Below are positions 10,763 to 42,827 of a DNA stretch of 64,000 nucleotides, one piece after another. Source of the DNA: Thermodesulfobacteriota bacterium (GTDB taxonomy: Bacteria > Desulfobacterota > Desulfarculia > JACQYL01). The stretch is taken from the NCBI GenBank assembly GCA_963675595.2, contig CAXXLZ010000002.1, positions 2,752,001 to 2,816,000 on the forward strand. The letters run 5' to 3'. The translations under genes and the position numbers were made by a program. The notes under the pieces are model-generated. The model was not told the origin of the DNA. It did no database searches and saw only the letters and a list, made by a program, of their open reading frames with translations. Position 1 is the stretch's first letter. Every line of letters begins with the position of its first letter.

Positions 10763-10969
10763 GGCAATCGAGGTGGAAAGCGAAACATTCGACGGCACCA
10801 AACAGTGTCGCCAAAGCGCGTGAAGGTTGGGTTTTGATTACGACCGACAGCGGACGCGAGTCGCAATGGTCACACGATTTCACGAATCACCGAGCGAAAA
10901 AAACAAGGCGTCTTCCAGGCGGGAATCCTCGATCGACCCGTCGCGAATTTATCCCGGACTCGGCGGACG

Positions 10970-11773
10970 TCACGACGCACCGGAAAGTCCGAAAAACCCG
11001 GCGGCGTTCTCGTACCCGAGGCGGGTCTTCCATTCTGCCGGAGTCTCGGGGTCTCTGAGAAACCGGACCTCGTCCTCGTGGAATTTCCCATTGGAATCCG
11101 TGTTGAGCATAAGCCGGTGCAAGGCTTGGGGATGCGCCCGCAGCATCTCGTGGACATCAGAAGGACGACATTTGATGCCCGATAGGGTGACCCCGGCCCA
11201 GTAGCCTCGTTCAAGAACCGATCCCAGGGTCTCGGGGACCAAATGGTCCACCACGATGCGCTCCGGATCCAAACCGGAACGATCCAGGATACCCAGAATC
11301 TCACCGGTAATCCGAGGCTTTTCTTTTCGAGGGGTATGCACACAGATACTAAGTCGGTCCCGTGGTGCGGCCGCATCCAAATGAGTCTGAAAAACAAGAC
11401 GCTCCAATTCGTCGCCCGTTTCCAGACCGATTTCTCCAACACCCAGGAAAAAGGGATCCTCAGCGGATTTCGTGAACAATTCCTCCAGAAAACGACGCAA
11501 GTTCTCCTCGCCGAAAGGCTCCGATGGAATGCAACGAGGGTGGATTCCCTCCACGTGATAGGCATGGAGGCCCTGAGCCCTCAGGTCCCTTACCAGGGCC
11601 GCATGCGCGTCGACGTAAGAGCCCGCTTCTTCCAGGGTGGTCGCCCCCTCACAGAACGCCCAGGAAACCACCGATACACCGTGTGATTTCAGCCATTGCG
11701 CCCGTTCGGGCCGACTCTCTACAATAAAATCAAGGTGAGCGTGGGAGTCGATAATGGGAGGCTCAGCGATCAC
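10970..11773 (-). CDS. TatD-family metallohydrolase
   Basis: IIDSHAHLD, GIHP, VGEIGLE, VHTPR, VVDH, LNTD. Confidence 0.85.
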   Translation of the reverse strand: MIAEPPIIDSHAHLDFIVESRPERAQWLKSHGVSVVSWAFCEGATTLEEAGSYVDAHAALVRDLRAQGLHAYHVEGIHPRCIPSEPFGEENLRRFLEELFTKSAEDPFFLGVGEIGLETGDELERLVFQTHLDAAAPRDRLSICVHTPRKEKPRITGEILGILDRSGLDPERIVVDHLVPETLGSVLERGYWAGVTLSGIKCRPSDVHEMLRAHPQALHRLMLNTDSNGKFHEDEVRFLRDPETPAEWKTRLGYENAAGFFGLSGAS

Positions 11774-14700
11774 TTGCGGCCCCCAAAGATTTCTCCGCCC
11801 TTAGGGCCTCAAGCGAAGCCTTTCCGTGAGCTCCGATGCTTTTAAGTGGGACTCCGCCCATGGAGGCGTCGGAATCATCGGACGAACCCGAGGCCAGGTC
11901 GATCAGTTCATCCACAGGGAAGTCGGCCAAGGTGCTCTCGCCATTGCCGATCACCACACGTTCGGGAAGGGAGGAGATGGGATAGAAGCCGAAAGCTTCT
12001 CCCTCATCGTCTATGTATCCGTTTCCGTTTCGATCCGTGCCCGCGGCCACGATGTAATTGCCCGCGGCGAGATGGGTCATGGCATAAGCGTAGTCCCCCG
12101 CCTTAAATACGAGGGCGACCTTCTGAGTGCTCAGGGTCAGAGGATCCACCGCCAGCACGTAAACCGGGCCCACATCGCCTCGACTCTCAGAGACCACGTC
12201 CTGCTTCTCCATGAGCACGGGGGCCTCCACGCTGCCGGAGGCCGGGGACTGCGCGGTGACGACGATCTTACCGCTGTAGGAACCGTCTTCAACAAGGGAT
12301 CTGTCCACCATGACCACGATTTCGGCGTCTTCGGCATCGGAAGTACCCACGCGCCCCTGGGTCTTGTCCACGGAAAGCCACGCATCCCCGTCCACGGTCA
12401 CCGTGAAATCGAACTCCCCGGAGGGATCGGTTCCTCCCACGTTGAGGACGGTGAGCACCAGCGCGGTTTTTTCCGTGCCGAAATTCAGGCTGGCGGGGTT
12501 CAAATCGGGAACGGGCACGCCCGACGAACCTGAGCCCGAGGCAAACTGCACGGCTGAAGACGCATCGATCAGGCCGTAGCCGAAGGTGGTGTCGTGCCCG
12601 GTCGAACCAAGGTCTTGGGTCAAGTATCCTTGGGCCAACCAGGTGTCGAATTGCTGAGGTGTAAATTTGTTCCCGGCGTGATCGGACATATAGGCCGCCT
12701 GCATGAGCGCGACCACGCCCGCGACGTGAGGGGTTGCCATGGAGGTACCTTGATACCGGCCGTAGGTGTAACCGATGGTCCCCTGGGAATCGTCTCCCAG
12801 GGTGGACAATACACCGTCGCTGAAACCGTCTCCGTTAAGGTCCGCGGAAGTATCGCCTCCCGGAGCGGCCACGTCCACCACCTGCCCATAATTGCTGTAA
12901 TATGCCTTCTTTTTGTCCAGATCCACCGCGGACACGGCGACGACTCCATCAACATTTGCGGGGACATATCCGCCGGCGTCGGCATTGTTGTTTCCAGCCG
13001 CGGCCACGACGACCACGCCGGCGCCACGTAGATCGTCGACCCCGCTCTGAAGCAGGTTGGAAGTCCCCGCACCGCCCAGGCTCATGTTGACCACGTCGGC
13101 CCGACGAGACGGAAGGGTTCCTGAATCGTTGGAAAGCCTCGCCGCGTAACGCATGGCCTGATAGATATCGTAGATGGTGCCTCCCTCGATACCCAGAACC
13201 CGAAGGTTCATGATCATACAGGAGTGGTCCACGCCGGCGACTCCGACTCCGTTGTCCGACGCGGCGCCCACGGTACCCGCCACATGGGTTCCATGGAACG
13301 AGGAAACACCGCTCGCGGCGTCTCCCGGGTCCGTGGGATCCGGGTCGATCCCGTCCCCGTCCCCTGCCGATCCGACGTTGCTGATGAAATCATACCCGGG
13401 CATGAACCGGGAAGAATCGAAGTCGGGGTGTTCCATCAGGATGCCCGTGTCCAGAACGGCCACCACGACTTCCCCGCTGCCGCGCGTCACGTTCCATGCC
13501 AGGGGAAGATTGACCAGGGGGTAATGCCATTGGTAGGTGTAATAGGGATCGTCGGGAAGGAATGACGGTCTGAGGATGTAGTTCGGTTCGGCCCACAGCA
13601 CATCGGATCGCGCTTTGAGCGCCTCGATTCTCTCGATGGTTTTCTCCCGGGACCGCTTCTTTCCCTCTTCCGCCAATGCGCTCACTCCCTCGGTTTCCAT
13701 GCCCGAAAACCGCACTAACGAGGGGCGTTGATCGACGTTCCCATGCGGGAGCAGGATGTCGGAAGTCGACTCCAAATTCAATGTCGTGGCGCCCTGCCGG
13801 AATCGCACAACCGCTTCGCCGGGCACGAATTCGGCTTCATCCGGAATGCTCTCGGAGCCTCCCACCGTTGCGGTCTGCCCCACGATGAGTGTGTAATTGG
13901 AGGACGCCCCGAAAAACCCCTGAATCGGTTCCACCCAGATGTAGGCCTCTCCGGTTTGGGTAGTGGTGGAAACTTGTTTGACTTTGTCGGATCCCGTGCT
14001 CGGAGAAACGATTTCGGATCCGCTCTCGTCCAACAAATGCAGATCCAACCTAAGATTGTCCGGGTCGGCGGTCACCAAAGCAACATACACCGGCCGGCCG
14101 GTGAGCTGAATTCGATAATAATCCTCATCGTAATTGAAGGGGCCGTACCGATTGGACCATCCGCCCACCGTGGCGGGCACGGAGATTTCCTGCGCCGTGG
14201 AGAGAGAATCGTTATCCCCTTGTTGATAGGGATCATTGGTATCCCAATCCGTATAAGCATCGGAGGCCATCGTCAGTTCACCCACCAAGTCCCCGTCGGC
14301 GGGCTCGACGGTGCTTCCGGGCGCCGTGAAAACGCGGTGCAGCTCCCCTTCACCCGAGGCGGAGCTTCCGGTTACCGGAAGGTCCCATGCGGCGGAGATT
14401 CCCAAAGGGTCAAGAGAATACTCCATCGACAGAATCCCGCCTTCTCCTGTGAGATCCTCTGCGTAAAACCCGTCCGAAACGGATGAATCCAAGAAAGCGA
14501 AAGTGGTATTGCACGAAGTCTCCCGCAGGACCACCAGACCCGAACCCGTATCGTAGTGTTGTACGTACAGGTTGACGTGGATGTCGTCGCCCGACTGCCC
14601 GTCTTTCCAGAGACCGCCGAATCCGGGAGCTTCGGGAACATCGAACCATTTGTAGATGGAGGAGTCCTCCACCGGGTTTCCCTGCACTGAAAGGGACGCG

Positions 14701-15044
14701 GCAGCCTCCTCCTGATCGAAGAACACCACGGTAAGATGATGACCGTTTCCGTCCACATCCTCCACATCGATGCCGTCGGAGTAGTCCTCGTCCAGAAAAA
14801 CGTAGAATTCTTCAAGGTTGGTGGTGGCTACGACAATGGCCGAGCCTTCTTCATAGGTCTGAATGAAGTAGTTTATGGATGGGGAGGCAGAGCCGGGTCG
14901 GACGTCTTTCCAAATTCCATCGAAAGCGGCCTGCACGGGCCCAATGAAAAACAGGAATAGAAAAAGAATGACGGATGAAGTAAACCAGCGAATCCGCGTT
15001 CCGTGTTCCATGGCCTGTGTCCTCCCAACCGCCTGCAAACCCAT
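11763..15044 (-). CDS. Secreted S8 (subtilisin-like) serine protease with tandem DGxWKD N-terminal domains and accessory beta-sandwich domains
   Basis: Triad VLDTG / HGTHVAGT / GTSMATPHVAG, oxyanion AAGNN; signal peptide ending VQA. Confidence 0.93.
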   Translation of the reverse strand: MGLQAVGRTQAMEHGTRIRWFTSSVILFLFLFFIGPVQAAFDGIWKDVRPGSASPSINYFIQTYEEGSAIVVATTNLEEFYVFLDEDYSDGIDVEDVDGNGHHLTVVFFDQEEAAASLSVQGNPVEDSSIYKWFDVPEAPGFGGLWKDGQSGDDIHVNLYVQHYDTGSGLVVLRETSCNTTFAFLDSSVSDGFYAEDLTGEGGILSMEYSLDPLGISAAWDLPVTGSSASGEGELHRVFTAPGSTVEPADGDLVGELTMASDAYTDWDTNDPYQQGDNDSLSTAQEISVPATVGGWSNRYGPFNYDEDYYRIQLTGRPVYVALVTADPDNLRLDLHLLDESGSEIVSPSTGSDKVKQVSTTTQTGEAYIWVEPIQGFFGASSNYTLIVGQTATVGGSESIPDEAEFVPGEAVVRFRQGATTLNLESTSDILLPHGNVDQRPSLVRFSGMETEGVSALAEEGKKRSREKTIERIEALKARSDVLWAEPNYILRPSFLPDDPYYTYQWHYPLVNLPLAWNVTRGSGEVVVAVLDTGILMEHPDFDSSRFMPGYDFISNVGSAGDGDGIDPDPTDPGDAASGVSSFHGTHVAGTVGAASDNGVGVAGVDHSCMIMNLRVLGIEGGTIYDIYQAMRYAARLSNDSGTLPSRRADVVNMSLGGAGTSNLLQSGVDDLRGAGVVVVAAAGNNNADAGGYVPANVDGVVAVSAVDLDKKKAYYSNYGQVVDVAAPGGDTSADLNGDGFSDGVLSTLGDDSQGTIGYTYGRYQGTSMATPHVAGVVALMQAAYMSDHAGNKFTPQQFDTWLAQGYLTQDLGSTGHDTTFGYGLIDASSAVQFASGSGSSGVPVPDLNPASLNFGTEKTALVLTVLNVGGTDPSGEFDFTVTVDGDAWLSVDKTQGRVGTSDAEDAEIVVMVDRSLVEDGSYSGKIVVTAQSPASGSVEAPVLMEKQDVVSESRGDVGPVYVLAVDPLTLSTQKVALVFKAGDYAYAMTHLAAGNYIVAAGTDRNGNGYIDDEGEAFGFYPISSLPERVVIGNGESTLADFPVDELIDLASGSSDDSDASMGGVPLKSIGAHGKASLEALRAEKSLGAASDR

Positions 15045-15047
15045 GCC

Positions 15048-15815
15048 TTAGAAGCTGACGGTAATACCCGCGAACGGGCCCGCCAAGTCGTAGTCCTGAT
15101 CGAGTCCGTCGGATTCCAGATCAACACTCAAGAAGCGATATCCGAGCCCCAAATCCATAAAGGCAAAAGGAGTTAGAGAGACTTCCGCTATGGCGTCCAC
15201 CAAGTGTTCATCCGAAGCCCAGTATCCCCCTCCTTTCAGGCGAACCTCAAGAACATCCGCTAGAAATCCGAGGTGAAGCTGCAATCCTCCGAGGGGACGA
15301 ATCCAGGAGAAGTCGATGTCTCCTTTTTGGCTCCCGCTCTCTATGCTCATGTTTCCCGTTTGGTATCTTCCGGCCAGAAAGACGTCCAGAGAAAATCCCG
15401 CGAGTATGTTTTCGAGGTCGAGTAGGGTAAAGGAGTATTCCATCTCCAACATGGTCCACTGGAGATTGGAATCCAATTGAGCATCCGAGGCAAAAGACTC
15501 CCCCGCGAACTGCAGGGATTTACCGGGCCTGTGCGTTTCCGATTGATCGAAGTAAGTGATGCCGAAGGAAAAATGATGCCGACCGATTCCAACGAAGGCC
15601 TCACCGAAAGGGACCCAGGAATATCCGAAATCCAGGTCGTCCTGAAGGTTGAGCACGGAACCCGTATCGCCGTTATTGCCTTGAATTTGCCCGTCGACAT
15701 TGGCGAGCCACAAATGGCCTCTGACTCCCACGTCGAAAGCGTGACTTGTGGATGTCAAAACGAAGAGACACATCCCGATAGTACAAACCCAACGCAACAT
15801 TTCCACTCTTCTCAT
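15048..15815 (-). CDS. Outer-membrane beta-barrel protein (TIGR04219-like)
   Basis: Signal peptide ending SHA, amphipathic strands, LGYR motif, C-terminal GPFAGITVSF. Confidence 0.8.
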   Translation of the reverse strand: MRRVEMLRWVCTIGMCLFVLTSTSHAFDVGVRGHLWLANVDGQIQGNNGDTGSVLNLQDDLDFGYSWVPFGEAFVGIGRHHFSFGITYFDQSETHRPGKSLQFAGESFASDAQLDSNLQWTMLEMEYSFTLLDLENILAGFSLDVFLAGRYQTGNMSIESGSQKGDIDFSWIRPLGGLQLHLGFLADVLEVRLKGGGYWASDEHLVDAIAEVSLTPFAFMDLGLGYRFLSVDLESDGLDQDYDLAGPFAGITVSF

Positions 15816-32474: not shown

Positions 32475-33068
32475 CTACGCCTCTACACGCCGGTCCTTCT
32501 TGCGCCTCGCGCCCGGCAAAGGACGCATCTCCGCTCCCTTGCCCAATTCCTTCAAGTGGACATGGATCCCTCTGAAAAAAGGCAGCCGCCATCGCACCTG
32601 TTTGAACAAAATCCGCATGAGAATATAAAAAAGCAGGAACGGAAACGCGTACCCCACCCGGTTTCCCGCGAAAGGCAGAGGAAAGGGCAATTCGAACGGA
32701 ACCCCGGAAAAACGTTTGCCCATCCAGTCGAGCGCCAAAGGAATCGGCCAAAGCATTCCCGCTCCCAGGGCGATCTGGTAGAAGAAGGACCGGCCGAAAG
32801 CATCGTTGGCTTGCTTGTTGCACGCCGTGTACCCCGCCTTGTCCCCCAACTCCAGCGCCTCCATGGACAGATTGTGCATTTTGACCATTTCCTCGTTGTG
32901 ATCCCGGATGAATTTCCGATTGATCAACAGGGCCGACGCCATGGTCAGTTCGCCGCACAGCACCGCCAGCAAAGCCAGCACCGCCGTCCCCAGGTAGAAG
33001 CCCAGCCACGGGTTCTCCGGAACGCGGTACCCGTAAATCAAAAGGGCGTCCATCCATTCAGGCCACAT
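32475..33068 (-). CDS. Hypothetical membrane protein
   Basis: About three TM segments; directly downstream of the TauE gene; start chosen at ATG 33068 (ORF extends to 33107). Confidence 0.7.
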   Translation of the reverse strand: MWPEWMDALLIYGYRVPENPWLGFYLGTAVLALLAVLCGELTMASALLINRKFIRDHNEEMVKMHNLSMEALELGDKAGYTACNKQANDAFGRSFFYQIALGAGMLWPIPLALDWMGKRFSGVPFELPFPLPFAGNRVGYAFPFLLFYILMRILFKQVRWRLPFFRGIHVHLKELGKGAEMRPLPGARRKKDRRVEA

Positions 33069-33114
33069 ATTCCCCTGTTCCCATTCCCACAGGCCGTCGG
33101 CCCGCACCGAAACA

Positions 33115-34263
33115 TCAGAAAGGCGGCAGCCAACTCGTTCCTAAGAAGCCCTTGGTGGTGTAACGAATACCCACGTAAAGCGCCAATACCACGAACAACC
33201 TCTTGAGCCAGATGTCCGGTATATACTTGGAGGTTCTGGGACCGATCATGGATCCCACGAAGATTCCGATTAATTCCACGCCGATGAGCCCCCAATGGAC
33301 CGGAACGTCCTTGCTGACCATGTAGGTCGTAACGGAAATCACCATGCCCACGAGCACCGTCAATGCGGAAGTACCGGCCACCAGGAACATGGGCAGACCG
33401 GCTATGGAGGTCAGAAAAGGAACGAACAGGAATCCGCCGCCCACGCCGATGAAAGAAGCCATCGCGGCAATGAGCAGACCGCCGATAACCGGCACGATGG
33501 GGGTAAAGCTGAATTCGGCTCCGAAGAAGGTAAAGTGCACTTTCGCGGGGCTCCAACTCAAGACTTTGACCCCTTGCTCCAGTGCGGCGCTCGAATCCTT
33601 TTGTTTGACGGATTTCTCGAAAGCCGCGGCCGCCGCTTTGGCCGCTTTCTTTCGGGCCTGACCCCTCGGAGTGGTTTCATAGAAAAGGAATCCGCCGATA
33701 ATCAAGACCACCAGTCCGAAGTACCCCAAGTACTCTCGGAGATTGATCTTGCCCGCGGTGAATACGGGTATCAGGTAGGACCCCAGGATCGAGCCCAATG
33801 CAAGACAGATCCCCAGAGGAAGCACCAGTCTCCGCATGCGATAGTAGTTGAGAGAACTGATGAAGGCGCTCAAGCCCACCAGCCACTGGTTCGAAACCCG
33901 AATCGAGTCCGTGATCGTCTTGTTCAGCGGATGTCCTTTGCCGAAAGACTTGGCATAGTCCCCCAGTCCGAAAACCGTGATGTGGCCCACTCCGGCCATG
34001 ATGCCCCCGAAGGCGCCCACACTGGAGAAAATCCACCCCACCCAGATCGCCCAGAAAAAGCCCACCACATAGCTCACCTGAGGCCCGCCGGGGATCCCCA
34101 GAAATCCGGGAGCGGCGTTGGGGTCCAACCGCCCGCTTTCGATGCCCGCTTGAATGGCGTCGGAAAGGGTATCCGCGAAAGCGGGCGCCGCAATCAATAA
34201 ACCAACGGATAGAAGAAGCCAAACCGCCAACCCGACCGAACACATCCTCACACCAAGCTTCAT
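33115..34263 (-). CDS. Sulfite exporter TauE/SafE (TSUP) family protein
   Basis: VGAFGGIMAG and GVGGGFLFVP repeats, VAGTS; N-terminal signal-like extension; SD ggaggt. Confidence 0.88.
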   Translation of the reverse strand: MKLGVRMCSVGLAVWLLLSVGLLIAAPAFADTLSDAIQAGIESGRLDPNAAPGFLGIPGGPQVSYVVGFFWAIWVGWIFSSVGAFGGIMAGVGHITVFGLGDYAKSFGKGHPLNKTITDSIRVSNQWLVGLSAFISSLNYYRMRRLVLPLGICLALGSILGSYLIPVFTAGKINLREYLGYFGLVVLIIGGFLFYETTPRGQARKKAAKAAAAAFEKSVKQKDSSAALEQGVKVLSWSPAKVHFTFFGAEFSFTPIVPVIGGLLIAAMASFIGVGGGFLFVPFLTSIAGLPMFLVAGTSALTVLVGMVISVTTYMVSKDVPVHWGLIGVELIGIFVGSMIGPRTSKYIPDIWLKRLFVVLALYVGIRYTTKGFLGTSWLPPF

Positions 34264-34404
34264 TCGTCACCTCCAGACCGTTTCAACCGCAGGGGCCTTT
34301 TCACCCCGCCGTCACGGGTTGTTATGAAATTCTTCCATATCTCCCGGCTTCAGCCGGGAAGTTACCTGCATGAGCCGAGCCCTCTCCAACCTTCGCACCC
34401 GAGA

Positions 34405-35244
34405 TCATTCCACTCCGAGCTCTTCTTTGATGCGTCGGATGATGTTCAGAAACGCCCGCGCCACATCCGAATCCGGACGCGCTTCGAACACGGGTGTGCC
34501 GTTGTCGCTTAGGGAAACCAATTCAGGATCCAAAGGAATCCCGCCCAGAAACGGCAGCCCGGCTTCCGATGCCAGCCTTTTCCCGCCTCCGGTCTTGAAC
34601 GGATCGATGACCCCGCCGCAGTGAGGACACACGAGCCCGCTCATGTTCTCCACAATCCCCATTCGCAGGTTCAGTCGGCGACAAAATTGTACGGACTTGC
34701 GCACGTCGGCCAGCGAAAGCTCTTGGGAAGTGGTCACGATCACCGCGAAGGCGTCCGGAATCATACGAGCCGCGGTCATGGGCTCGTCGCCGGTACCGGG
34801 CGGCGCGTCCACCACGAGATAATCCAGGTCTCCCCAAGGAACATCCGCGACGAATTGACGGATCATGTTGGTTTTGAGGGGGCCTTTCCAGATAACCGAC
34901 GCGTCCTTGTCGCGAAGGAGCGATTCCACGGACATGACCTCAAAGCCTTCGCGATAGACGACGGGGTCCATGGTCCGGTCCTCCCGGACCCGAGTCATCC
35001 GGTCCTTGATTCCGAGGAGTCCGGGTACGCTGGGACCATGTAGATCCACGTCCAGCAGGCCCACTTTGGAGCCTTCGGCATACAACCCGCAGGCCAGGTT
35101 CACGGCAACGGTGCTCTTACCCACCCCACCCTTGCCGCTCATGACCAACAGCTTGTGCCTGATATGGTCGAGAGACCGCCGGATCATTTCATCCTGGAGG
35201 GCTTTCACGGCACCCCGACAAGATTTCCCTTTTTCAGCGGTCAT
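34405..35244 (-). CDS. mrp: Mrp/NBP35 (ApbC) Fe-S carrier ATPase
   Basis: SGKGGVGKST, DVDLHGPS, DAPPGTGDE, ENMSGLVCPHC. Confidence 0.92.
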   Translation of the reverse strand: MTAEKGKSCRGAVKALQDEMIRRSLDHIRHKLLVMSGKGGVGKSTVAVNLACGLYAEGSKVGLLDVDLHGPSVPGLLGIKDRMTRVREDRTMDPVVYREGFEVMSVESLLRDKDASVIWKGPLKTNMIRQFVADVPWGDLDYLVVDAPPGTGDEPMTAARMIPDAFAVIVTTSQELSLADVRKSVQFCRRLNLRMGIVENMSGLVCPHCGGVIDPFKTGGGKRLASEAGLPFLGGIPLDPELVSLSDNGTPVFEARPDSDVARAFLNIIRRIKEELGVE

Positions 35245-35346
35245 CGGTCCGCCTCTGAAATCTCCGAATCCATAAATACCTCATAGAATCTCTTCACGAA
35301 ACCCCACCCGCTCGAACGATACGAGCGCGGAAGTCATGGCGCCTCA

Positions 35347-36504
35347 TCAGCCGCGACCGGCCCCGGCCGTCTTCATGGTCTCGATCTCCTCGGCGGGGCG
35401 GCCGCCTCCCATTGTGCGTCCCATTCGGTCCCGCAAAGCGGACCTCACCGCTTCCATCTCTTCGTCGTCCGGAATGTAAGGGTAGTTCCACTGGCGCACG
35501 CCGGGCAGACAGTTCCCGAAGGGACGATTGCACGCCACTTCCCCGTCCCTGCCGGGACAACCCGAGGTCATAAAAGGAGTCCGCCGCTCCACGGTTTCCA
35601 GAAAAACCTTCTCCGGAACCCCGAAGTCCCGGATGCGGCCGGCGTCGTCGAAACGCATGCTCTCGGCCCGGACTTGGTTTTCCTCGATGAGAAAACGGGC
35701 GACCTGCAACATGAGGTACTCATCCCAAGGAGGCTGGGGTAGATGTGCAAGCCGAGAATTCGATTCCGCGAAGAAACTGAACAGGTGGATCAGAGCCCCC
35801 GCATCGTGAACGCGCTGGAAGACTTCCACAAGCCGGCGTTGAGTTTCCCCCAGCCCCACGATCAGATGCACGCTCACTCGGAACTCCCCGAAAATGCTTA
35901 CCGAATCGTGAACCGTTCGCCAATATCGGTCCCAACGATGAGGCCCCCGTACGCCCGCTCCACGAAACTCCTTGAAAAGGTCTTCGTCGGCGGCATCCAG
36001 AGCCACCCCGATCATGTCGGCGCCGGCATCGCGGTAAGCTTCCAGGTCCTTTGAGGACAACACGGTGGGAGCGCAAAGAACGGAAAGAGGGAGATCGCAG
36101 GCCGAAGTGATGGTACGAGTGAGATTCAAGGTATCCCGTACCGCCCGCGGATGAGTGACCATTGAGATGCAAACCCGTCGCAATCTTTGCGATTGCGTCC
36201 TCATGCGCTCAATGATTTCCGAGACCGGCAGCGTGGGCCACCCCACTTTGATGAAGCTCTTTTCCTCATACTCTCCGGGACGATGGCGCGCCAAACCGCA
36301 ATAGGCGCAATTGGCGCGACAGCCTTCCGCGTAGGTCAGAAGAAGATTCACACAAGGATTTTTCGCACCTCGGTAAAAACGGCCCGGCAAGAACCCGAGC
36401 TCCATGGCGGTGGCCGTGCTCAGTTTCAGCACATCCGGGCTCTCCAGACGGACTTCCGGTTCACCGCAGGCGCCCTGAGGTTGAAAAACTTCCGTATCAG
36501 CCAT
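35347..36504 (-). CDS. Radical SAM protein, LipS2-like sulfur insertase
   Basis: CRANCAYC; HLIVGLGET; C-terminal TSGCPG...ACNRP resembling the TxGCPxC(N/D)RP motif of LipS2. Confidence 0.75.
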   Translation of the reverse strand: MADTEVFQPQGACGEPEVRLESPDVLKLSTATAMELGFLPGRFYRGAKNPCVNLLLTYAEGCRANCAYCGLARHRPGEYEEKSFIKVGWPTLPVSEIIERMRTQSQRLRRVCISMVTHPRAVRDTLNLTRTITSACDLPLSVLCAPTVLSSKDLEAYRDAGADMIGVALDAADEDLFKEFRGAGVRGPHRWDRYWRTVHDSVSIFGEFRVSVHLIVGLGETQRRLVEVFQRVHDAGALIHLFSFFAESNSRLAHLPQPPWDEYLMLQVARFLIEENQVRAESMRFDDAGRIRDFGVPEKVFLETVERRTPFMTSGCPGRDGEVACNRPFGNCLPGVRQWNYPYIPDDEEMEAVRSALRDRMGRTMGGGRPAEEIETMKTAGAGRG

Positions 36505-37600
36505 GGGCTTCCTTTGCTGATTCCAATAGTCCGGAAGACGAAGGAGTGGGCCGTTTCGCGGCTACAACGGCTTCCGCCAGAGCTTCGGGATCCACTCCGT
36601 GAATCATGTCCGGCACCCAGACCTTCCGGATGGCTTCCAGAACCGATTCCTTTCCCACATAGGTCCATTTCAGCGCCGACTCGATCCGATTTACCGATTC
36701 CACGGATGAAAAGAAATCCCCGGTAATCACCACCTGATCGATGACGTTGCCGGCAGTGGAAAGGTACACTTGGAGCAGCCCGCCCGGTGTCTTTCGGAGC
36801 GCTTCCCCCATGCGGGACCGTGGATGCTTGTGGGAAAAGACCCAGGACGGATCGCGGTAACGGTTCATTTCCAACTCCCGCGCCGTCCGTTCTTCCCATT
36901 CCGTGGGGCTCGAGTTTTCGAAACGGACCTGCAACTCCTCCTCGAAGGATCGGATCACGGCCCTTATCACTTCGTCCATCCCCGGGTTCCGTCCCGCCTC
37001 CCGGGAAATGGTGGTCAATCTTTCGCTGAAACAGCTGTATCCTTTGTCGTAGATCTTCTCCGTGGGCGTGTTCATGATGTCCAGCATGAGGTCCACGTCG
37101 AATTCCACCAGAAGACTCGCATGAAACAGCACCGCATTGCCGATTTCATTGGAAGCGGACAAACCCGCCAGCTTTTTGCCGCTCACCTCGATATCGTTCT
37201 TGGGACGAAATCCGGCTTCGATTCCCAGAGCTTCCAAAGCACGCATCACCGCCCGACTCATGGCCTGGAAAAGGCTCCGGATCCCTTTTCCGGTTCTTGA
37301 GTTTCCAAGAGAGACTCCGAGCCCGAGAGCCACCACCTCCGGCCCCATGATCACCGTTCCGCCGCCGGTGCTCCTGCGATTATAGGCAACGCCTCGATCT
37401 TTGCACCGATCGAGCTTCAGAGCGGCCCGTATGTCCTGGTATCGCCCCACGATGGCGGCGGGTTCAAAAGTATATAGATGAAGAATGGGAGGGGAATTCC
37501 GCTGAAAAACGGCATGGGGCAACATATCGTCCACGGACAGGCCTTCCGTGACGGGCACACGACGTTTCCAGTCTTCGAAGAGTCTCCACGTTTCCGTCAT
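36497..37600 (-). CDS. Lipoate-protein ligase with fused C-terminal accessory domain (Lpl(AB) type)
   Basis: RRSTGGGTV, PKNDI...GKKLAG, C-terminal KTPGGL...ITGDFF. Confidence 0.9.
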   Translation of the reverse strand: MTETWRLFEDWKRRVPVTEGLSVDDMLPHAVFQRNSPPILHLYTFEPAAIVGRYQDIRAALKLDRCKDRGVAYNRRSTGGGTVIMGPEVVALGLGVSLGNSRTGKGIRSLFQAMSRAVMRALEALGIEAGFRPKNDIEVSGKKLAGLSASNEIGNAVLFHASLLVEFDVDLMLDIMNTPTEKIYDKGYSCFSERLTTISREAGRNPGMDEVIRAVIRSFEEELQVRFENSSPTEWEERTARELEMNRYRDPSWVFSHKHPRSRMGEALRKTPGGLLQVYLSTAGNVIDQVVITGDFFSSVESVNRIESALKWTYVGKESVLEAIRKVWVPDMIHGVDPEALAEAVVAAKRPTPSSSGLLESAKEAHG

Positions 37601-37604
37601 GAAA

Positions 37605-38045
37605 TCACGATGTCTTGGCGCGTTCTTCTTCCGCGTGGGAGATTTCCCGATCGATCCATTCCTTCACCGCGTCTCCATGGAACAGCTTGGAGAGCTCCTC
37701 ATCCAGATCCGAGGGCTTCATCCGAAACACCCAACCGCCCCCATAAGGGTCCGTGTTGACCAAAGTGACTTCGTCTTCCAGGTCCTCGTTCACCTCGATG
37801 ATCGTGCCGGAGAGGGGAGAGCACAGTTTGCCGATCCACTTACGGCTCTGAATCTTTCCGCAGACTTCCCCCTGCTCCACTTCGTCGTCTTCCTCGGGCA
37901 TGTCCACAAACACGATCTCTCCGGCCTCTTTCTGAAAGAAATCGTTCATCCCCACCGTTACGCTCCCGTCCTCTTCAAGGCGGGCCCAACTATGTTCCTC
38001 GTGATAGTAAAGATCATCAGGCAGCGAAAAATCCTGGAATTCCAT
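37605..38045 (-). CDS. GcvH-like lipoyl-carrier protein (LbpA type)
   Basis: YHEEHSWAR, lipoyl-Lys motif IQSRKWIG, SPLSG, NTDPYGGGW; SD aaggag. Confidence 0.88.
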   Translation of the reverse strand: MEFQDFSLPDDLYYHEEHSWARLEEDGSVTVGMNDFFQKEAGEIVFVDMPEEDDEVEQGEVCGKIQSRKWIGKLCSPLSGTIIEVNEDLEDEVTLVNTDPYGGGWVFRMKPSDLDEELSKLFHGDAVKEWIDREISHAEEERAKTS

Positions 38046-38123
38046 GGCCCTTCTCTCCTTTCTCAGCAACGCGCCAACCGATCCCGCCGGGTGAAGTCCA
38101 CCGTCTTCCCGGCCCGATTCGTC

Positions 38124-38381
38124 TCAAACGGACCCCGCCATTTTCCGGTTCACCTTGGTACGGATTTCAAAAAGATTCTCCGAACCGTGTAATTCTCCCG
38201 CAAGGAAACGCTCACGCGTCCGCACCGGTTCCGGATTCAAATATCGGAGACCCCCGACGCAGACGGCACCACCACAATTGTTGCACACTCTGCGGCCCGG
38301 GTAAAGAGACTCGTCCGAATCAACATGGTCCCGACAGGCTCTCAACCGCCAGTCTTTTGATTCCACATCCATATTCACCAT
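38124..38381 (-). CDS. Small hypothetical Cys-containing protein
   Basis: 85-aa co-oriented ORF filling the gap between hdrA and the lipoyl carrier; CNNCGGAVC. Confidence 0.3.
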   Translation of the reverse strand: MVNMDVESKDWRLRACRDHVDSDESLYPGRRVCNNCGGAVCVGGLRYLNPEPVRTRERFLAGELHGSENLFEIRTKVNRKMAGSV

Positions 38382-38411
38382 CCGCTTTCCAGAAATTTCG
38401 GCCTTGCCCGC

Positions 38412-41261
38412 TTATGGGGACGGGGTTACGTCAAGCAACGCGGCGATCCTTGCAGACATCGCCGAGTCGGGCGGATCGCTCAGCGTGATGGCTCCCGCGG
38501 GACATTCGGCAACGCAGACACCGCAAGCACGACACAAGAAAGGGTCGATTCGGCTCACGTTCCCATCTCTGACGGCGGGTGCGCCGTAGGGACAGACTCG
38601 GACACAGGCCAGGCACGCTTGACAACGCCCCGCATCCACTACCGCGGAAACTCTCTCACGGCCCAGATCCTTGAGGAACAGAGCCGCACGCAAGGCCGCG
38701 GACTTGGCCTGCCGCACCGTTTCCTCCAAAGACTTGGGCGATTGGACCAGTCCGGCCGCAAAAACCCCGAAAACCGCCGTTTCTTCACTCAATAAGGGCA
38801 TACGGGCGTCGGAGATGAAACCTGAATCGTCCCGGGCGACCCCGAGTTCCTTCAGCCATTCCCCGGAGTCTCCCGGAACCATGGCCGATGCCAGCACCAG
38901 TCGGTCGGCGGGTGTCTCGATGTCCGCGTTAAGCAACTCATCGAAAAAGACAACGTAGACGCGTCCACCCCGGATTTCAACTCGAGGCTTCCGCTCGGGC
39001 GAAAACCGCGAGAACAGGATACCCGCCTCCCTCGCCTCCCGATAAAGCTCCTCCCGAAAACCATAGGTCCGAATGTCGCGGTGCAAAATAAATATCGAGG
39101 CCTGGGGGCGAAGCTTTTTCAAAAAAAGAGCGCTTTGAATGGAATGAGTGCAACAAACCCGGCTGCAGTAAGGCCTGTCCGAATCCCGAGACCCCACGCA
39201 TTGGATGAAGACCGCACGGGACACATCGTTCAGGGCCTCCGCCCCCAATCGCAGCTGTTCGTCCATCTCTCCGTGAGTCAGCACGCCAGGATGGCTTCCA
39301 TACCCGTATAACGAAGGGCGGATTTCCTCCGCCCCGGTGGCTACGACCACCGCCCCGTGCTCCAAAACACTGCGGGCTCCTTCGGGACCCTCGAGCTCCG
39401 TGATGAACGCGCCTCCTCGACCTCGCGTGCGCAGAGGCCGCGTCCGGTTCATCATGGTGAGCAAGGGTTCGGTCCGGGCCTCGGCCAACAGTCCCTCCAT
39501 AAAAGGAGGTACGGGCGTACCATTCCACAGGGCGGCCATGCGACGTGCGTTCCCGCCGAAAGTCTCGGTACGCTCGACCAACACCACCGGCACCCGCATT
39601 CGGCACAGTTCCAGAGAAACGCACAATCCCGCCGCACCGCCTCCCACCACCAGCACTTCCTTACGGAAAGGAATCGACTTGATTTCCGGCGGAGCGCCGG
39701 CCGTCACTGAGGCCAGGGCCTCATTCACGAGGGATCGGGCCTTTCCCAATGCCGCATGAGGAGCGTCCCGGTGAACCCAAGCGCATTGCTCCCTCAGGTT
39801 GGCCATGGCCATAAAGCGAGGAGGGAAGCCTGCGGCTTCCAATCGGTTCTTGAACAGAGGCCCCAAGATCCTTTCGGAGCAGGAGGCGATCACCAGCCGG
39901 TTCAGATCGTGCGTCCGGACCGCGGACATCATGGAAGCCAATGCCGCATCGCTGCACGCATAAGAAGTCCGTTCCGTGTGCGCCACCAAAGGAAGGGAAG
40001 CGCATCGGGTTTCCAGGCTTGAAAGGTCGATCACGTTGCCCACGTTCCCGCCGCACCCGCACAAAAAAACGCCGACGCGGGGAGGTCCGTCGTTCACCGT
40101 GGTATTCGGAAGTCGTTTGGGAGCCGTCGCGTCCTCGAGGAGAGTCCGGGCGCAGCAGGCCGCGGCGGCCGAAGCCTGGGATAGAGACTCCGCCACGTCT
40201 TTTGGACTCTCAAAAGCCCCCGCAACATAAATTCCCGGGCGGGAAGTCCACACCGAGTCCAAAGGATCGGTCGAAGCGAATCCGTAAGGGTTCAGGTCGA
40301 CGCCCAACACTTCCGCCGTTCGGCGTGCCTCCACCGACGGCTGCAATCCGACGCTCAACACTGCCAGGTCCACCTCTCGTTCTTGTCTCGCTCCGTCTTC
40401 CGATTCAAAGCAGAATCGCAGGCTTCCCGTTTCCGGAGCTTCTTCGATGGCGGGAATTCGCCCGTAAGCGAATTCGACGCCGTGGTCTCGCCGAGCCTTT
40501 TCGAAGTAGGGATCCAAGTCTTTTTCATGCGCGCGAACATCCATGAAATAGATGCGGACCTCGGCGTCCGGAAGCAGTTCCTTAACGGCCACGGCCTCCT
40601 TTACGGCATAGGCGCAGCACACGGAGGAGCAGTAGGGATTACCGCATCGGGTGTCCCTGGAGCCCACGCACTGAAGGAACGCGATCCGCTGAGGAGTCGC
40701 CCCGTCGGACGGACGAAGCAGTCCCCTGCCGGAAGATTCGCCGGGACGAATCCATTCCTCCAAGTCCACCGAAGTCACCACATTGGGCATTCGGCCGTAT
40801 CCGTATTCCGGTTTCAGGGCGGCATCGAAGGGAACACAACCCGGCGCCAGAATCACGGCCTGAACATCCAACGTTTCTTTGGACCGGAGGCCTTCTTCCG
40901 GGCCGTGGATTACGGAAACGGAGAAGCTGCCGGATGTGCCCGAAAAGGCGTCGATCTCCGCATTCGTCCATATTCGGATACCCGGGCGGGTCGCAGCTTC
41001 GTTCACACGACTCGACAATACGCAGTCCGCACAGTCGTTGGTGGGAAACAGTTTGTCCAGCCGGGCGAGGAGGCCCCCGGGAGAGGAAGCGGAATCCAAG
41101 ACAACGCATCCGAGTCCCAGGTCGTCCAGGTCCAAAGCCGCCTGCAATCCCGCGATTCCTCCACCTACGACCAGGACTGTGGAAAGATTGTTCGGTGCTG
41201 GTTGAATATCACTGGCTTTCATGGCATTGGCGTCGGTTTCTTTCAGGTTGTGCTTTCCCAA
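38412..41261 (-). CDS. hdrA: Heterodisulfide reductase subunit A-like flavoprotein with two FAD modules
   Basis: Two GGGxAG motifs, FPTNDC, two CVGSRD...YCSxVCC motifs, internal CGCGGN, C-terminal 2x CxxCxxCxxxCP. Confidence 0.92.
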   Translation of the reverse strand: MGKHNLKETDANAMKASDIQPAPNNLSTVLVVGGGIAGLQAALDLDDLGLGCVVLDSASSPGGLLARLDKLFPTNDCADCVLSSRVNEAATRPGIRIWTNAEIDAFSGTSGSFSVSVIHGPEEGLRSKETLDVQAVILAPGCVPFDAALKPEYGYGRMPNVVTSVDLEEWIRPGESSGRGLLRPSDGATPQRIAFLQCVGSRDTRCGNPYCSSVCCAYAVKEAVAVKELLPDAEVRIYFMDVRAHEKDLDPYFEKARRDHGVEFAYGRIPAIEEAPETGSLRFCFESEDGARQEREVDLAVLSVGLQPSVEARRTAEVLGVDLNPYGFASTDPLDSVWTSRPGIYVAGAFESPKDVAESLSQASAAAACCARTLLEDATAPKRLPNTTVNDGPPRVGVFLCGCGGNVGNVIDLSSLETRCASLPLVAHTERTSYACSDAALASMMSAVRTHDLNRLVIASCSERILGPLFKNRLEAAGFPPRFMAMANLREQCAWVHRDAPHAALGKARSLVNEALASVTAGAPPEIKSIPFRKEVLVVGGGAAGLCVSLELCRMRVPVVLVERTETFGGNARRMAALWNGTPVPPFMEGLLAEARTEPLLTMMNRTRPLRTRGRGGAFITELEGPEGARSVLEHGAVVVATGAEEIRPSLYGYGSHPGVLTHGEMDEQLRLGAEALNDVSRAVFIQCVGSRDSDRPYCSRVCCTHSIQSALFLKKLRPQASIFILHRDIRTYGFREELYREAREAGILFSRFSPERKPRVEIRGGRVYVVFFDELLNADIETPADRLVLASAMVPGDSGEWLKELGVARDDSGFISDARMPLLSEETAVFGVFAAGLVQSPKSLEETVRQAKSAALRAALFLKDLGRERVSAVVDAGRCQACLACVRVCPYGAPAVRDGNVSRIDPFLCRACGVCVAECPAGAITLSDPPDSAMSARIAALLDVTPSP

Positions 41262-41268
41262 TGTGAGA

Positions 41269-42153
41269 TCACTCGATACCGAGTCTCTTCAGGAGCTTTT
41301 TCGGCTTGACGATGTTCTGCTTAAATCCGAGTTCCTTGGAAGAAAACCCCATACCCAAGCCCAAGATTTGGGTAATGAAAAGGACGGGCAGCTCGAAAGG
41401 CTCTCCGGACGCCGTGTCGATGCTCTTCTGGTTCGATTCGTACATAACCGAACAGAAAGGACAGGCCACAGTCAGGACCTCGGCTGTGGAATCCCGCAAG
41501 GCGTTGAGTTTGGACCGGGCCGCGGCCACGGCGGTTTCCGGGTCGTAAGCCATCACCGGCCCCCCGCAACATTTTGTTTTCCCAGGGTAATCCGTAGTGC
41601 GAGCCCCTGTGAGCCGTGCGAGTCGATCCAGAGAAGAGGGCGCTTCCACACTGTCGAAGCCATGAAGCTCCGAGGGCTTGATGAAATGACAGCCGTGGTG
41701 CGCGGCCACCGTAACGGCGGAGAGGTCTATCTTCATTGCATCGCCCACGGCCTTCAGTCCCACCTCGTCGTGGAGAAAGGGCACAATATGCGAAACCTTC
41801 ACGCCGCCTTCATACCGCAAGCCCACGCGTTCCAACTTCCGGTCGACTTCGCGCCTCAATTCCGGGCGGTGATCCAGCTCCACCGCGGCCTCCTTTAAAG
41901 AGGAGGTGCAGGAACTGCACAAGGTAAGGATATCCAGACCTTCCCGACGGGCCAGGGTCAAATTCGCGGCCGCCAGCGTGATCGCGGCCGTTTCGTCCAT
42001 GGCTTTCAAGGGAAAGCCGCAGCAGGCGAAGGTGAACACGTCGACCAAGTCGACGCCCAGGGCGAGACAAACGCGCCGTGCCGAGGCCTCGTAGTGCCTC
42101 GTGCGGGCCGGAATGGTGCATCCCAAGAAAAGTGCTTTGCGCATGTTATCCAT
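41269..42153 (-). CDS. hdrB: Heterodisulfide reductase subunit B
   Basis: Two CCG domains: GC...CCG...CSSC and HHGCH...CCGG...CPFC. Confidence 0.93.
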   Translation of the reverse strand: MDNMRKALFLGCTIPARTRHYEASARRVCLALGVDLVDVFTFACCGFPLKAMDETAAITLAAANLTLARREGLDILTLCSSCTSSLKEAAVELDHRPELRREVDRKLERVGLRYEGGVKVSHIVPFLHDEVGLKAVGDAMKIDLSAVTVAAHHGCHFIKPSELHGFDSVEAPSSLDRLARLTGARTTDYPGKTKCCGGPVMAYDPETAVAAARSKLNALRDSTAEVLTVACPFCSVMYESNQKSIDTASGEPFELPVLFITQILGLGMGFSSKELGFKQNIVKPKKLLKRLGIE

Positions 42154-42323
42154 AAATTGAGTTACTCCGGCGATTCAGTGCCCAACCCTCTCCAAGCGTC
42201 TCCCCAGCGGACGGCCGGGGGACGAGCACTTGCCCGCATCTCTCGGCGGTTTTGGGCTCGGGACGAAAGCCGTTGTGTCCCCGTGCGGCGAACACGGATG
42301 GAGAGACGCATTTCCGGAAACAA

Positions 42324-42827
42324 TCACGGTTTCACCGGCGCAAGGTCGTCCGCCAACAATGCGCCCGCATCTTCCAACACGGTGGGCAACTCCGGCAGAT
42401 CGAGTTTGACCCGTTTCTTATTGTCGAAGTCACTGATCTCGTAGATTCTGCCCATCCGGGAAAGGCTCTCCAACTGGATATTGGTTCCCGCCGGCGCATA
42501 ACCGGAGCGATACGCCATGTTCTTGAGAACGGTCATGAGCTCCGCGATATGCACGCCTTGAGGGCACCGTTCCCGACAGGCGTAACAGGAAGCGCAAAGC
42601 CACACGAAACCACCGGACAACACCTCCTTTTTCATGCCGAAAAGGCACATGCGGATAAGGCGGCGAGGGTTGAAGCGCTCATCGACTTCGCGGATGGGAC
42701 AGCTCATGGTGCAGGTTCCACAAGCGAAACAGGCGGCGAGGCTCTCCCCGCCGGGCCGGCTCCGAATTTCCATTGCGAACGAAGGGTCCAATTCTTCTAC
42801 GGCAATACGATTCAAAGCGAACTCCAA
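42324..42827 (-). CDS. hdrC: Heterodisulfide reductase subunit C
   Basis: CFACGTCTMSCP and WLCASCYACRERCP. Confidence 0.92.
   Translation of the reverse strand: MEFALNRIAVEELDPSFAMEIRSRPGGESLAACFACGTCTMSCPIREVDERFNPRRLIRMCLFGMKKEVLSGGFVWLCASCYACRERCPQGVHIAELMTVLKNMAYRSGYAPAGTNIQLESLSRMGRIYEISDFDNKKRVKLDLPELPTVLEDAGALLADDLAPVKP

Follow-up and report, generated by a model that had tools for sequence, protein, structure and literature searches.

A heterodisulfide reductase gene cluster with a GcvH-like lipoyl carrier in a Thermodesulfobacteriota genome: lipoamide as a candidate partner of HdrB

What is the substrate of heterodisulfide reductase (Hdr) of the HdrABC type in organisms that lack the synthesis of both coenzyme M and coenzyme B? 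The question is long-standing, and few redox genes of sulfate reducers and syntrophs are as abundant as those for Hdr. It is raised anew by a stretch of 64,000 nucleotides (the window) from a Thermodesulfobacteriota bacterium (GenBank assembly GCA_963675595.2, contig CAXXLZ010000002.1, positions 2,752,001 to 2,816,000), in which hdrC, hdrB and hdrA are followed by genes for a GcvH-like lipoyl carrier, a lipoate:protein ligase and a LipS2-like radical S-adenosylmethionine (SAM) protein. An earlier note on this DNA (the original prediction) had proposed that protein-bound lipoamide is the disulfide substrate of HdrB. The analysis reported here makes it moderately probable that the lipoylated GcvH-like carrier is the dithiol/disulfide partner of HdrB in the adjacent HdrCBA. 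The locus and its relatives make protein-bound lipoate a concrete, testable candidate disulfide outside methanogens.

Hdr subunits, carrier and lipoylation genes

HdrB of the window has two CCG motifs whose ten cysteines (C12, 44, 45, 79, 82, 155, 195, 196, 231, 234), the set for two non-cubane clusters, are invariant in 31 sequences, and HdrC has eight cluster cysteines (C33, 36, 39, 43, 78, 81, 84, 88), making up two [4Fe-4S] motifs and invariant in 28 sequences. Methanogen HdrB structures align to HdrB over its full length (9sfi_C, 198 bits; 5odc_B, 192 bits), and the protein is predicted to be the catalytic, disulfide-reducing type of subunit. As the sequences show, the methanogen-type cluster motifs are complete in HdrB and HdrC, and HdrA is a tandem of two flavin modules to which a ferredoxin domain is joined. 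Residues 29-373 of HdrA are a short flavin adenine dinucleotide (FAD) module resembling that of sHdrA, the HdrA of the sHdr complex of sulfur oxidisers (6tjr_A, 166 bits over residues 28-369). Residues 394-949 form an HdrA-like unit that opens with a Cys-cluster domain (residues 394-540, matching the N-terminal domain of this type in HdrA) and continues through a second FAD domain to a 2x[4Fe-4S] ferredoxin domain at the C-terminus. Against 5odc_A the alignment falls into five pieces and the inserted ferredoxin domain is missing. None of the three subunits reaches its NCBIfam equivalog cut-off (scores in Table 1). The source genome encodes eight large HdrA paralogues.

The carrier passes the cut-offs for GcvH (NF002270, 139 versus 117; TIGR00527, 124.6 versus 115.85), and its gene probably starts at Met-8, position 38048, rather than at the TTG. 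Its lysine aligns with the lipoyl lysine of Escherichia coli GcvH and lies in the motif QSRKWIGK, the E. coli counterpart being ESVKAASD. The pattern S-x-K-W-x-G is invariant in the 25 sequences of alignment A4 and is kept in all Hdr-adjacent carriers. The only two cysteines of the carrier flank the lysine at -7 and +6, and the one at +6 is not conserved beyond close relatives. The ligase has a catalytic domain plus a C-terminal (LplB-like) domain, and its gene shares an 8 nt overlap with that of the LipS2-like protein; the reading frames show the genes of the ligase and the LipS2-like synthase half packed cotranslationally after that of the carrier. Since this pair is sensible only for a lipoylated protein, the carrier is presumably lipoylated. 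The LipS2-like protein has one paralogue in the source genome, two LipS1-like genes lie elsewhere (C2:302024 and C2:2510023, 219 and 214 bits against a cut-off of 230), and LipT is present only at a second carrier locus described below.

The conventional roles of a GcvH-type protein are poorly accommodated in this genome (6.79 Mb in 3 contigs, 98% complete). Neither GcvP (PF02347) nor GcvT (PF01571) has a match genome-wide, with controls positive in 10 and 11 of 14 genomes, so glycine cleavage was rejected as the job of the carrier. There is one 2-oxoacid dehydrogenase set, comprising E1-beta, E2 and LpdA, the lpdA gene adjoining that for E2 outside the window. The E2 has its own lipoyl domain, and canonical LipA (378 bits) and LipB (141 bits versus a cut-off of 84) are present; with these two at the service of the single E2, the carrier probably does not belong to a 2-oxoacid complex. 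Three lipoyl-attachment enzymes (LipB, the LplA-like protein of the window and an LplA/DUF116 fusion) stand beside three obvious lipoyl acceptors (E2 and two GcvH-like carriers). That the carrier nevertheless serves a glycine cleavage or 2-oxoacid dehydrogenase complex encoded elsewhere, an option named along with the original prediction, would fit its scores above the curated GcvH cut-offs, but it can scarcely be credited given the missing GcvP and GcvT, a lysine motif unlike that of E. coli GcvH, and an E2 already provided for. A third GcvH-related protein of the genome (L005 8443-10357 = G000:C2:2110443-2112357; NF045810 'GcvH_rel_desulf', 213 bits) is encoded next to a gene for a TsoB-like rhodanese/DsbD-fusion protein, which is another thiol/disulfide context.

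A structural model of HdrB with the carrier, suggested together with the original prediction and run here with HdrC added, passed its controls. The predicted complex scored 0.61, the best of three controls 0.24; 58 of 80 solved complexes attain the 0.61 mark, against 2 of 110 mismatched pairs, a calibration that is only rough because the alignments of this study fed the model. Partner predicted local distance difference test (pLDDT) values are at least 87, and contact agreement between runs is at least 92%. In the model the hairpin that bears lysine 70 of the carrier (residues 61-74) lies against HdrB residues 16-17, 205, 209, 239-243 and 278-283, positions that adjoin the CCG cysteines, and against HdrC towards its C-terminus (residues 113 and 129-141). 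The model supports binding of the carrier to HdrB-HdrC.

Recurrence of the association in relatives and in the same genome

Among 301 sampled genomes of the phylum, a search with HdrB at a cut-off of E<=1e-65 gave 46 matches in 44 genomes. Coordinates were compared with the best 150 of the 511 rows of the alignment A4 search, and a GcvH-like match lies within 3.3 kb on the same contig at 21 or more of the 46 HdrB matches, a lower bound because only those 150 rows were compared. Adjacency of hdrCB and gcvH recurs across Desulfobacterota, in varied orders and in seven families: f1, f4 (6/6), f15 (2/2), f18 (3), f37 (4/4), f39 (1), and f63 (4/6). The GcvH-like gene is immediately beside hdrCB in 12 of 20 inspected loci. 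The order is hdrA-hdrC-hdrB-gcvH followed by a GlcD::HdrD fusion in f4, hdrB-hdrC-gcvH in f15, and narI-like-hdrD-gcvH divergent from hdrC-hdrB-hdrL-mvhD in f18. In a maximum-likelihood tree, 31 HdrB rows (30 distinct loci, as L076 and L159 are the same contig) group apart from the four other HdrB paralogues of the genome with support of 91/95; in 18 of these rows the carrier gene is adjacent, and in a further one it lies within 5 kb. A locus of another kind, L166 7411-10397 (G299), has two tandem hdrC-hdrB pairs between hdrA genes, reminiscent of the C1B1...C2B2 order of sHdr, with no carrier gene nearby.

Co-occurrence follows the same direction. Scores of the alignment A4 search are bimodal in the best 150 of 511 rows, with at least 187 bits in 52 of the 301 genomes and otherwise at most 162. 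LipS2 has a match in 49 of the 52 high-scoring genomes and in 55 of the 301 overall. A high-scoring carrier is found in 28 of the 29 genomes whose HdrB is at least 43% identical, and the sole exception is a genome 80% complete.

The association also takes the form of a gene fusion. At L072 (G072, 10733-15217) a single open reading frame of 450 aa encodes a receiver domain (REC), a GcvH domain and HdrC, and is followed by hdrB and an hdrA of 1580 aa; two further receiver-GcvH proteins are encoded upstream of it, preceded by a histidine kinase and a sigma-54 activator. The same genome has at another place the order hdrB-like-gcvH-glcD-hdrD-x-lplA-lipS2. In a WOR-3 genome (L112 4139-14150) the genes hdrC-hdrB-hdrA/mvhD-mvhG-mvhA-gcvH-larA-glcD-hdrD are co-oriented. 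Here, outside the methanogens, an Mvh-Hdr operon of methanogen style includes a gene for a lipoyl carrier.

The source genome itself has a second carrier locus outside the window (G000:C2:293288-304380; L004 11288-19900 and L006 1842-5380). Its order is multihaem cytochrome c, orf342, HdrD-like, GcvH-like, HdrD-like, LplA/DUF116, LipT-like, LipS1-like, and LipS2-like, the LipT-like gene being that of a geranylgeranyl-reductase-type flavoprotein. The second carrier is 43% identical to that of the window (tblastn) and is sandwiched by the two HdrD-like genes, so that a lipoyl carrier is paired with a CCG-domain protein twice in one genome. The arrangement recurs in 7 of 57 LipS2 loci of the phylum.

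Surveys from the HdrA and carrier sides reach other parts of the relatives. A contig search with HdrA alone returned 75 pattern matches with no relative among them, and full-length HdrA orthologues were found in only two other genomes, both of the same family, among 41 searched. Both keep the order plsY-macro-hdrC-hdrB-hdrA-orf85-gcvH-lplA-lipS2-mrp(-tauE-membrane protein) at 45-78% identity. From the carrier side, an alignment built on the closest type of carrier (GcvH1) was run against one genome per species, and the best 80 of 282 relatives were compared. They belong mostly to uncultured Desulfobacterales, Desulfatiglandales and 'Deltaproteobacteria', and include strain NaphS2, a few Thermoplasmatota, one WOR-3 and one Anaerolineales. 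In most of the 80 loci the carrier gene is followed by that of the ligase; 65 have the whole carrier-ligase-LipS2 triad, and a contig edge cuts off many of the remaining 15. A distant carrier variant with the motif E-A-G-K-Y occurs inside lipS1-lplA-lipS2 clusters at L064, L066 and L067 (G065, G042 and G087); at L064 it comes after a cytochrome and an HdrD-like gene.

Proposed mechanism and competing explanations

If the carrier is the partner of HdrB, the GcvH-like protein would be a dedicated lipoylated redox carrier whose protein-bound dithiolane pairs with the HdrB active site of the adjacent HdrCBA. The LplA-like and LipS2-like proteins, with a LipS1-like protein encoded elsewhere, would build lipoate on the window carrier only, and Mrp would be the supplier of Fe-S clusters. 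HdrB could work in either direction, reducing the lipoyl disulfide or oxidising the dihydrolipoyl form, and HdrA would couple this reaction to ferredoxin and to another electron donor or acceptor, for which flavin-based bifurcation is a possible route. The carriers of both loci may ferry reducing equivalents back and forth between soluble Hdr and CCG proteins linked to the membrane, filling the role held elsewhere by the heterodisulfide of coenzymes M and B (CoM-S-S-CoB) or by DsrC. With regard to the original prediction, the functional tie between Hdr and carrier is upheld by the recurrent adjacency, the fusion, the second locus, the complex model and the missing GcvP and GcvT, whereas the identity of the substrate is something we infer.

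Extended beyond this genome the proposal becomes tentative. Protein-bound lipoamide on S-x-K-W-x-G GcvH-like carriers, with their own ligase and LipS-type synthase, might be what Hdr-type enzymes outside methanogens, whether soluble HdrABC, Mvh-Hdr, GlcD-HdrD fusions or HdrD/cytochrome modules linked to the membrane, use as their physiological 'heterodisulfide' in Desulfobacterota, WOR-3 and Thermoplasmatota, serving a membrane-cytoplasm redox loop as a third carrier beside CoM-S-S-CoB and DsrC. If true, this would be the second non-classical lipoate role after that of sHdr and its lipoyl carrier LbpA, and a new carrier would have to enter the electron-flow schemes of many uncultured anaerobes of sediments.

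Several points weigh against a partnership of carrier and HdrB. The gene upstream of the carrier belongs to one and the same cluster in 62 of the 80 carrier-side loci, probably hisD to judge from two scanned members, and an hdr-like gene is in the flanks of only eight (L075, L076, L077, L095, L104, L112, L113, and L131); this is the strongest result against an obligate link of Hdr and carrier. As to whether hdr and lipoyl genes are unlinked in relatives, which the original prediction had named as speaking against it, the surveys divide: they are unlinked at the 62 hisD-preceded loci and linked at no fewer than 21 of the 46 HdrB loci. Conversely, 25 of those 46 HdrB matches have no nearby carrier among the matches listed, including all of f30 (0/7) and f77 (0/4) as well as weaker f18, f20 and other matches. 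The co-occurrence counts overstate the association because related genomes are not independent, and the synteny in the source family alone says little about function because even plsY and the macro-domain gene are conserved. The three receiver-fused GcvH domains of L072 are without the lipoyl lysine. With a potential of about -290 mV, lipoamide accepts electrons much less readily than CoM-S-S-CoB (about -140 mV), so that a bifurcation would have little energy to spare. Moreover, not all CCG proteins act on disulfides, GlcF and LutA being examples of those that need not.

The hisD-adjacent loci speak for a competing explanation, a housekeeping function in lipoate assembly, in which the triad would build lipoate and relay it to other proteins, as GcvH of Bacillus subtilis does in the LipM-LipA-LipL route (PMC10332631), and the position beside hdrCBA would be an accident of synteny. 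B. subtilis GcvH is likewise a GcvH-type protein with a role independent of glycine cleavage, the triad is complete in most carrier-side loci with no hdr gene near the 62 that follow the inferred hisD, conservation in the family extends over the entire neighbourhood, plsY and the macro-domain gene included, and the E2 of the genome needs lipoate. The E2 is, however, already served by LipB and LipA, and no LipL-type amidotransferase was detected above cut-off, the sole match (16 bits) being on the ligase itself. An accident of synteny also accounts poorly for carriers beside hdrCB in seven families and varying orders in the HdrB-centred survey, the GcvH-HdrC fusion in L072, the second carrier between two hdrD genes, or a complex model that passed its controls, and this explanation is considered rather unlikely. 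Far more improbable is a regulatory or pseudo-substrate role, in which the GcvH fold would dock on Hdr for control and not for electron transport. The receiver-fused, lysine-less GcvH domains of L072, one of them also fused to HdrC, are what such a role would predict; the carrier of the window and all 25 A4 sequences retain the lysine, and most carriers precede a ligase and LipS2.

Among known systems the locus comes nearest to sHdr-LbpA with sLpl(AB)/LipS1/LipS2/LipT (Cao et al. 2018, PMC6067878; Tanabe et al. 2023, PMC10332631), whose LbpA module the original prediction had recognised in it. In both, the genes of an Hdr complex go together with those of a single-domain GcvH-like protein whose lipoyl lysine is conserved, of an LplA-type ligase specific to this carrier, and of LipS-type radical SAM enzymes, and the canonical lipoylation route is encoded in the same genome as well. 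The sHdr gene set is described as hdrC1-hdrB1-hdrA-hyp-hdrC2-hdrB2 with a short HdrA of about 350 aa (PMC12345210), whereas the window has one HdrB, one HdrC, and a tandem HdrA of 949 aa. LbpA is reported to have two conserved cysteines near the N- and C-termini (PMC6067878), a pair that the window carrier lacks. Only LipS2 of LipS1/LipS2/LipT is in the cluster, and the host has dsrA and groups with uncultured Desulfobacterales-type relatives. The sulfurtransferases DsrE, TusA and rhodanese, which accompany sHdr (PMC11094781), are absent from the 10 cluster genes and 9 neighbours in Pfam searches that covered these genes and not the rest of the genome. The locus is therefore not an sHdr/LbpA system, failing on gene composition, on the LbpA cysteine pair and on sulfurtransferases, and an equation of the two is not supported. 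Hdr subunits and carrier were placed among the known systems by matches to PDB structures and by gene content. LipS1 and LipS2 outside sulfur oxidisers are in any case already known, as only 42% of bacteria containing them have sHdr (PMC10332631).

An sHdr-like sulfur oxidation might still be carried out: the carrier would present sulfane sulfur, Hdr would make sulfite, and TauE would export it, perhaps as the oxidative branch of sulfur disproportionation. Hdr, a lipoyl carrier, dedicated LplA and LipS-type genes, and TauE do match between the two, TauE being the proposed sulfite exporter of Hyphomicrobium denitrificans (PMC11582611), and the resemblance of the N-terminal HdrA module to sHdrA and the presence of dsrA point the same way. 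Besides the differences in subunits, carrier cysteines and sulfurtransferases just given, HdrB is nearest to methanogen HdrB, and TauE is found at this position elsewhere only in L010 (same family) and L095 (another lineage). Sulfur oxidation of this kind is accordingly held to be unlikely, and the link to sulfur transport through TauE, which the original prediction had also drawn, is weak.

The partnership of carrier and HdrB can also be compared with two further systems. As in methanogen HdrABC (MvhAGD-HdrABC, 5odc; Fdh-Hdr, 7bkb), HdrB is full-length with its ten CCG cysteines, both HdrC clusters are present, and HdrA has an FAD domain, an N-terminal Cys domain and a C-terminal ferredoxin domain. 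The locus differs in that HdrA is duplicated and without the inserted ferredoxin domain, all three subunits are below equivalog cut-offs, the window is without hydrogenase or MvhD, and the proposed substrate is a lipoyl protein and not CoM-S-S-CoB. In sulfate reducers DsrC with DsrMK(JOP) is the 'bacterial heterodisulfide', a small protein-borne dithiol/disulfide that HdrD-like proteins with CCG domains cycle. The same logic can be seen in the second locus and in the order narI-like-hdrD-gcvH of f18; however, the redox group of the carrier would be a lipoyl group on lysine requiring its own ligase and synthase, while that of DsrC consists of two cysteines.

The only printed suggestion found of lipoyl GcvH as the disulfide of HdrB is a paragraph on Culexarchaeia, whose Ehe/HdrA2B2C2-GcvH cluster led its authors to suggest the GcvH lipoyl group as the otherwise unknown disulfide (Kohtz et al. 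2022, PMC9723716). There too a GcvH gene lies inside an Hdr/hydrogenase cluster of a non-methanogen. That case is archaeal, in a membrane hydrogenase context, and a speculation of one paragraph, with no mention of ligase or synthase genes or of a survey in the available portion of the paper, whereas the carrier of the window comes with maturation genes and a phylum-wide survey. A literature search found no description of an Hdr-GcvH-ligase module in Desulfobacterota; subscription journals and the supplementary genome tables of PMC10332631 and PMC6067878 were outside its scope.

Gene layout and neighbouring genes

The co-oriented run of ten genes in the original prediction is present in full (Table 1). 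Its description as a conventional Hdr combined with an 'LbpA module' stands for the single HdrB and HdrC and the large HdrA; 'module' is an overstatement, as the cluster has a LipS2-like gene without LipS1 or LipT. Among the absences that it listed, those of gcvP, gcvT, mvhD and hydrogenase genes hold in the searches made: gcvP and gcvT are undetectable even beyond the window, none of the 10 MvhD/FlpD matches of the genome falls in the window, and tblastn with NiFe-hydrogenase subunits, MvhD and the GlcD-like protein of relatives gave no match there. Five of the 10 MvhD matches of the genome contain one in-frame TGA, perhaps for selenocysteine.

Table 1. Genes of the hdr-lipoyl carrier run, in order of transcription, with positions in the window and family matches
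Gene product	Position	Strand	Family match
HdrC, 167 aa	42324..42827	-	Fer4_8; TIGR03290 97.5 bits (cut-off 160)
HdrB, 294 aa	41269..42153	-	CCG x2; TIGR03288 230 bits (cut-off 345)
HdrA, tandem flavoprotein, 949 aa	38412..41261	-	NF040770 HdrA2 622 bits (cut-off 1100)
orf85, small Cys-containing protein between hdrA and carrier gene	38124..38381	-	no family match
GcvH-like lipoyl carrier, 154 aa from TTG start	37605..38069	-	PF01597 129 bits
LplA-like lipoate:protein ligase, 367 aa	36497..37600	-	PF21948 129 bits; PF10437 36 bits; TIGR00545 148 bits (cut-off 280)
LipS2-like radical SAM protein, 385 aa	35347..36504	-	NF053743 214 bits (cut-off 270)
Mrp/ApbC-type Fe-S cluster carrier ATPase, 279 aa	34405..35244	-	PF10609 304 bits; NF041136 MrpORP 350 bits (cut-off 450)
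TauE/SafE-family membrane transporter, 382 aa	33115..34263	-	PF01925 79 bits; about 8 hydrophobic segments (hydropathy)
Membrane protein, 210 aa	32475..33107	-	no family; unnamed Thermodesulfobacteriota family

From hdrC to the membrane protein gene the intergenic distances are 170, 7, 30, 54, 4, -8 (the overlap), 102, 141, and 7 nt. No terminator-like site was found on either side of orf85 in a consensus scan of those gaps. The gap between hdrC and hdrB (window 42154-42323) is about 54 nt in the same-family locus L010, and no feature was detected inside the 170 nt. The run is preceded on its 5' side by a macro-domain gene and plsY and followed on its 3' side by glycosyltransferase genes. The product of orf85 matches no Pfam or NCBIfam family and its best look-alike is uninformative (0.77), although the gene is kept at the same place in both same-family genomes (47% and 45% identity). 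An Mrp gene also follows lipS2 in L010, L011 and L095. The 210-aa membrane protein has look-alike clusters at 0.96, every one of them unnamed, and its gene is found directly after tauE in L010 and L095 as well.

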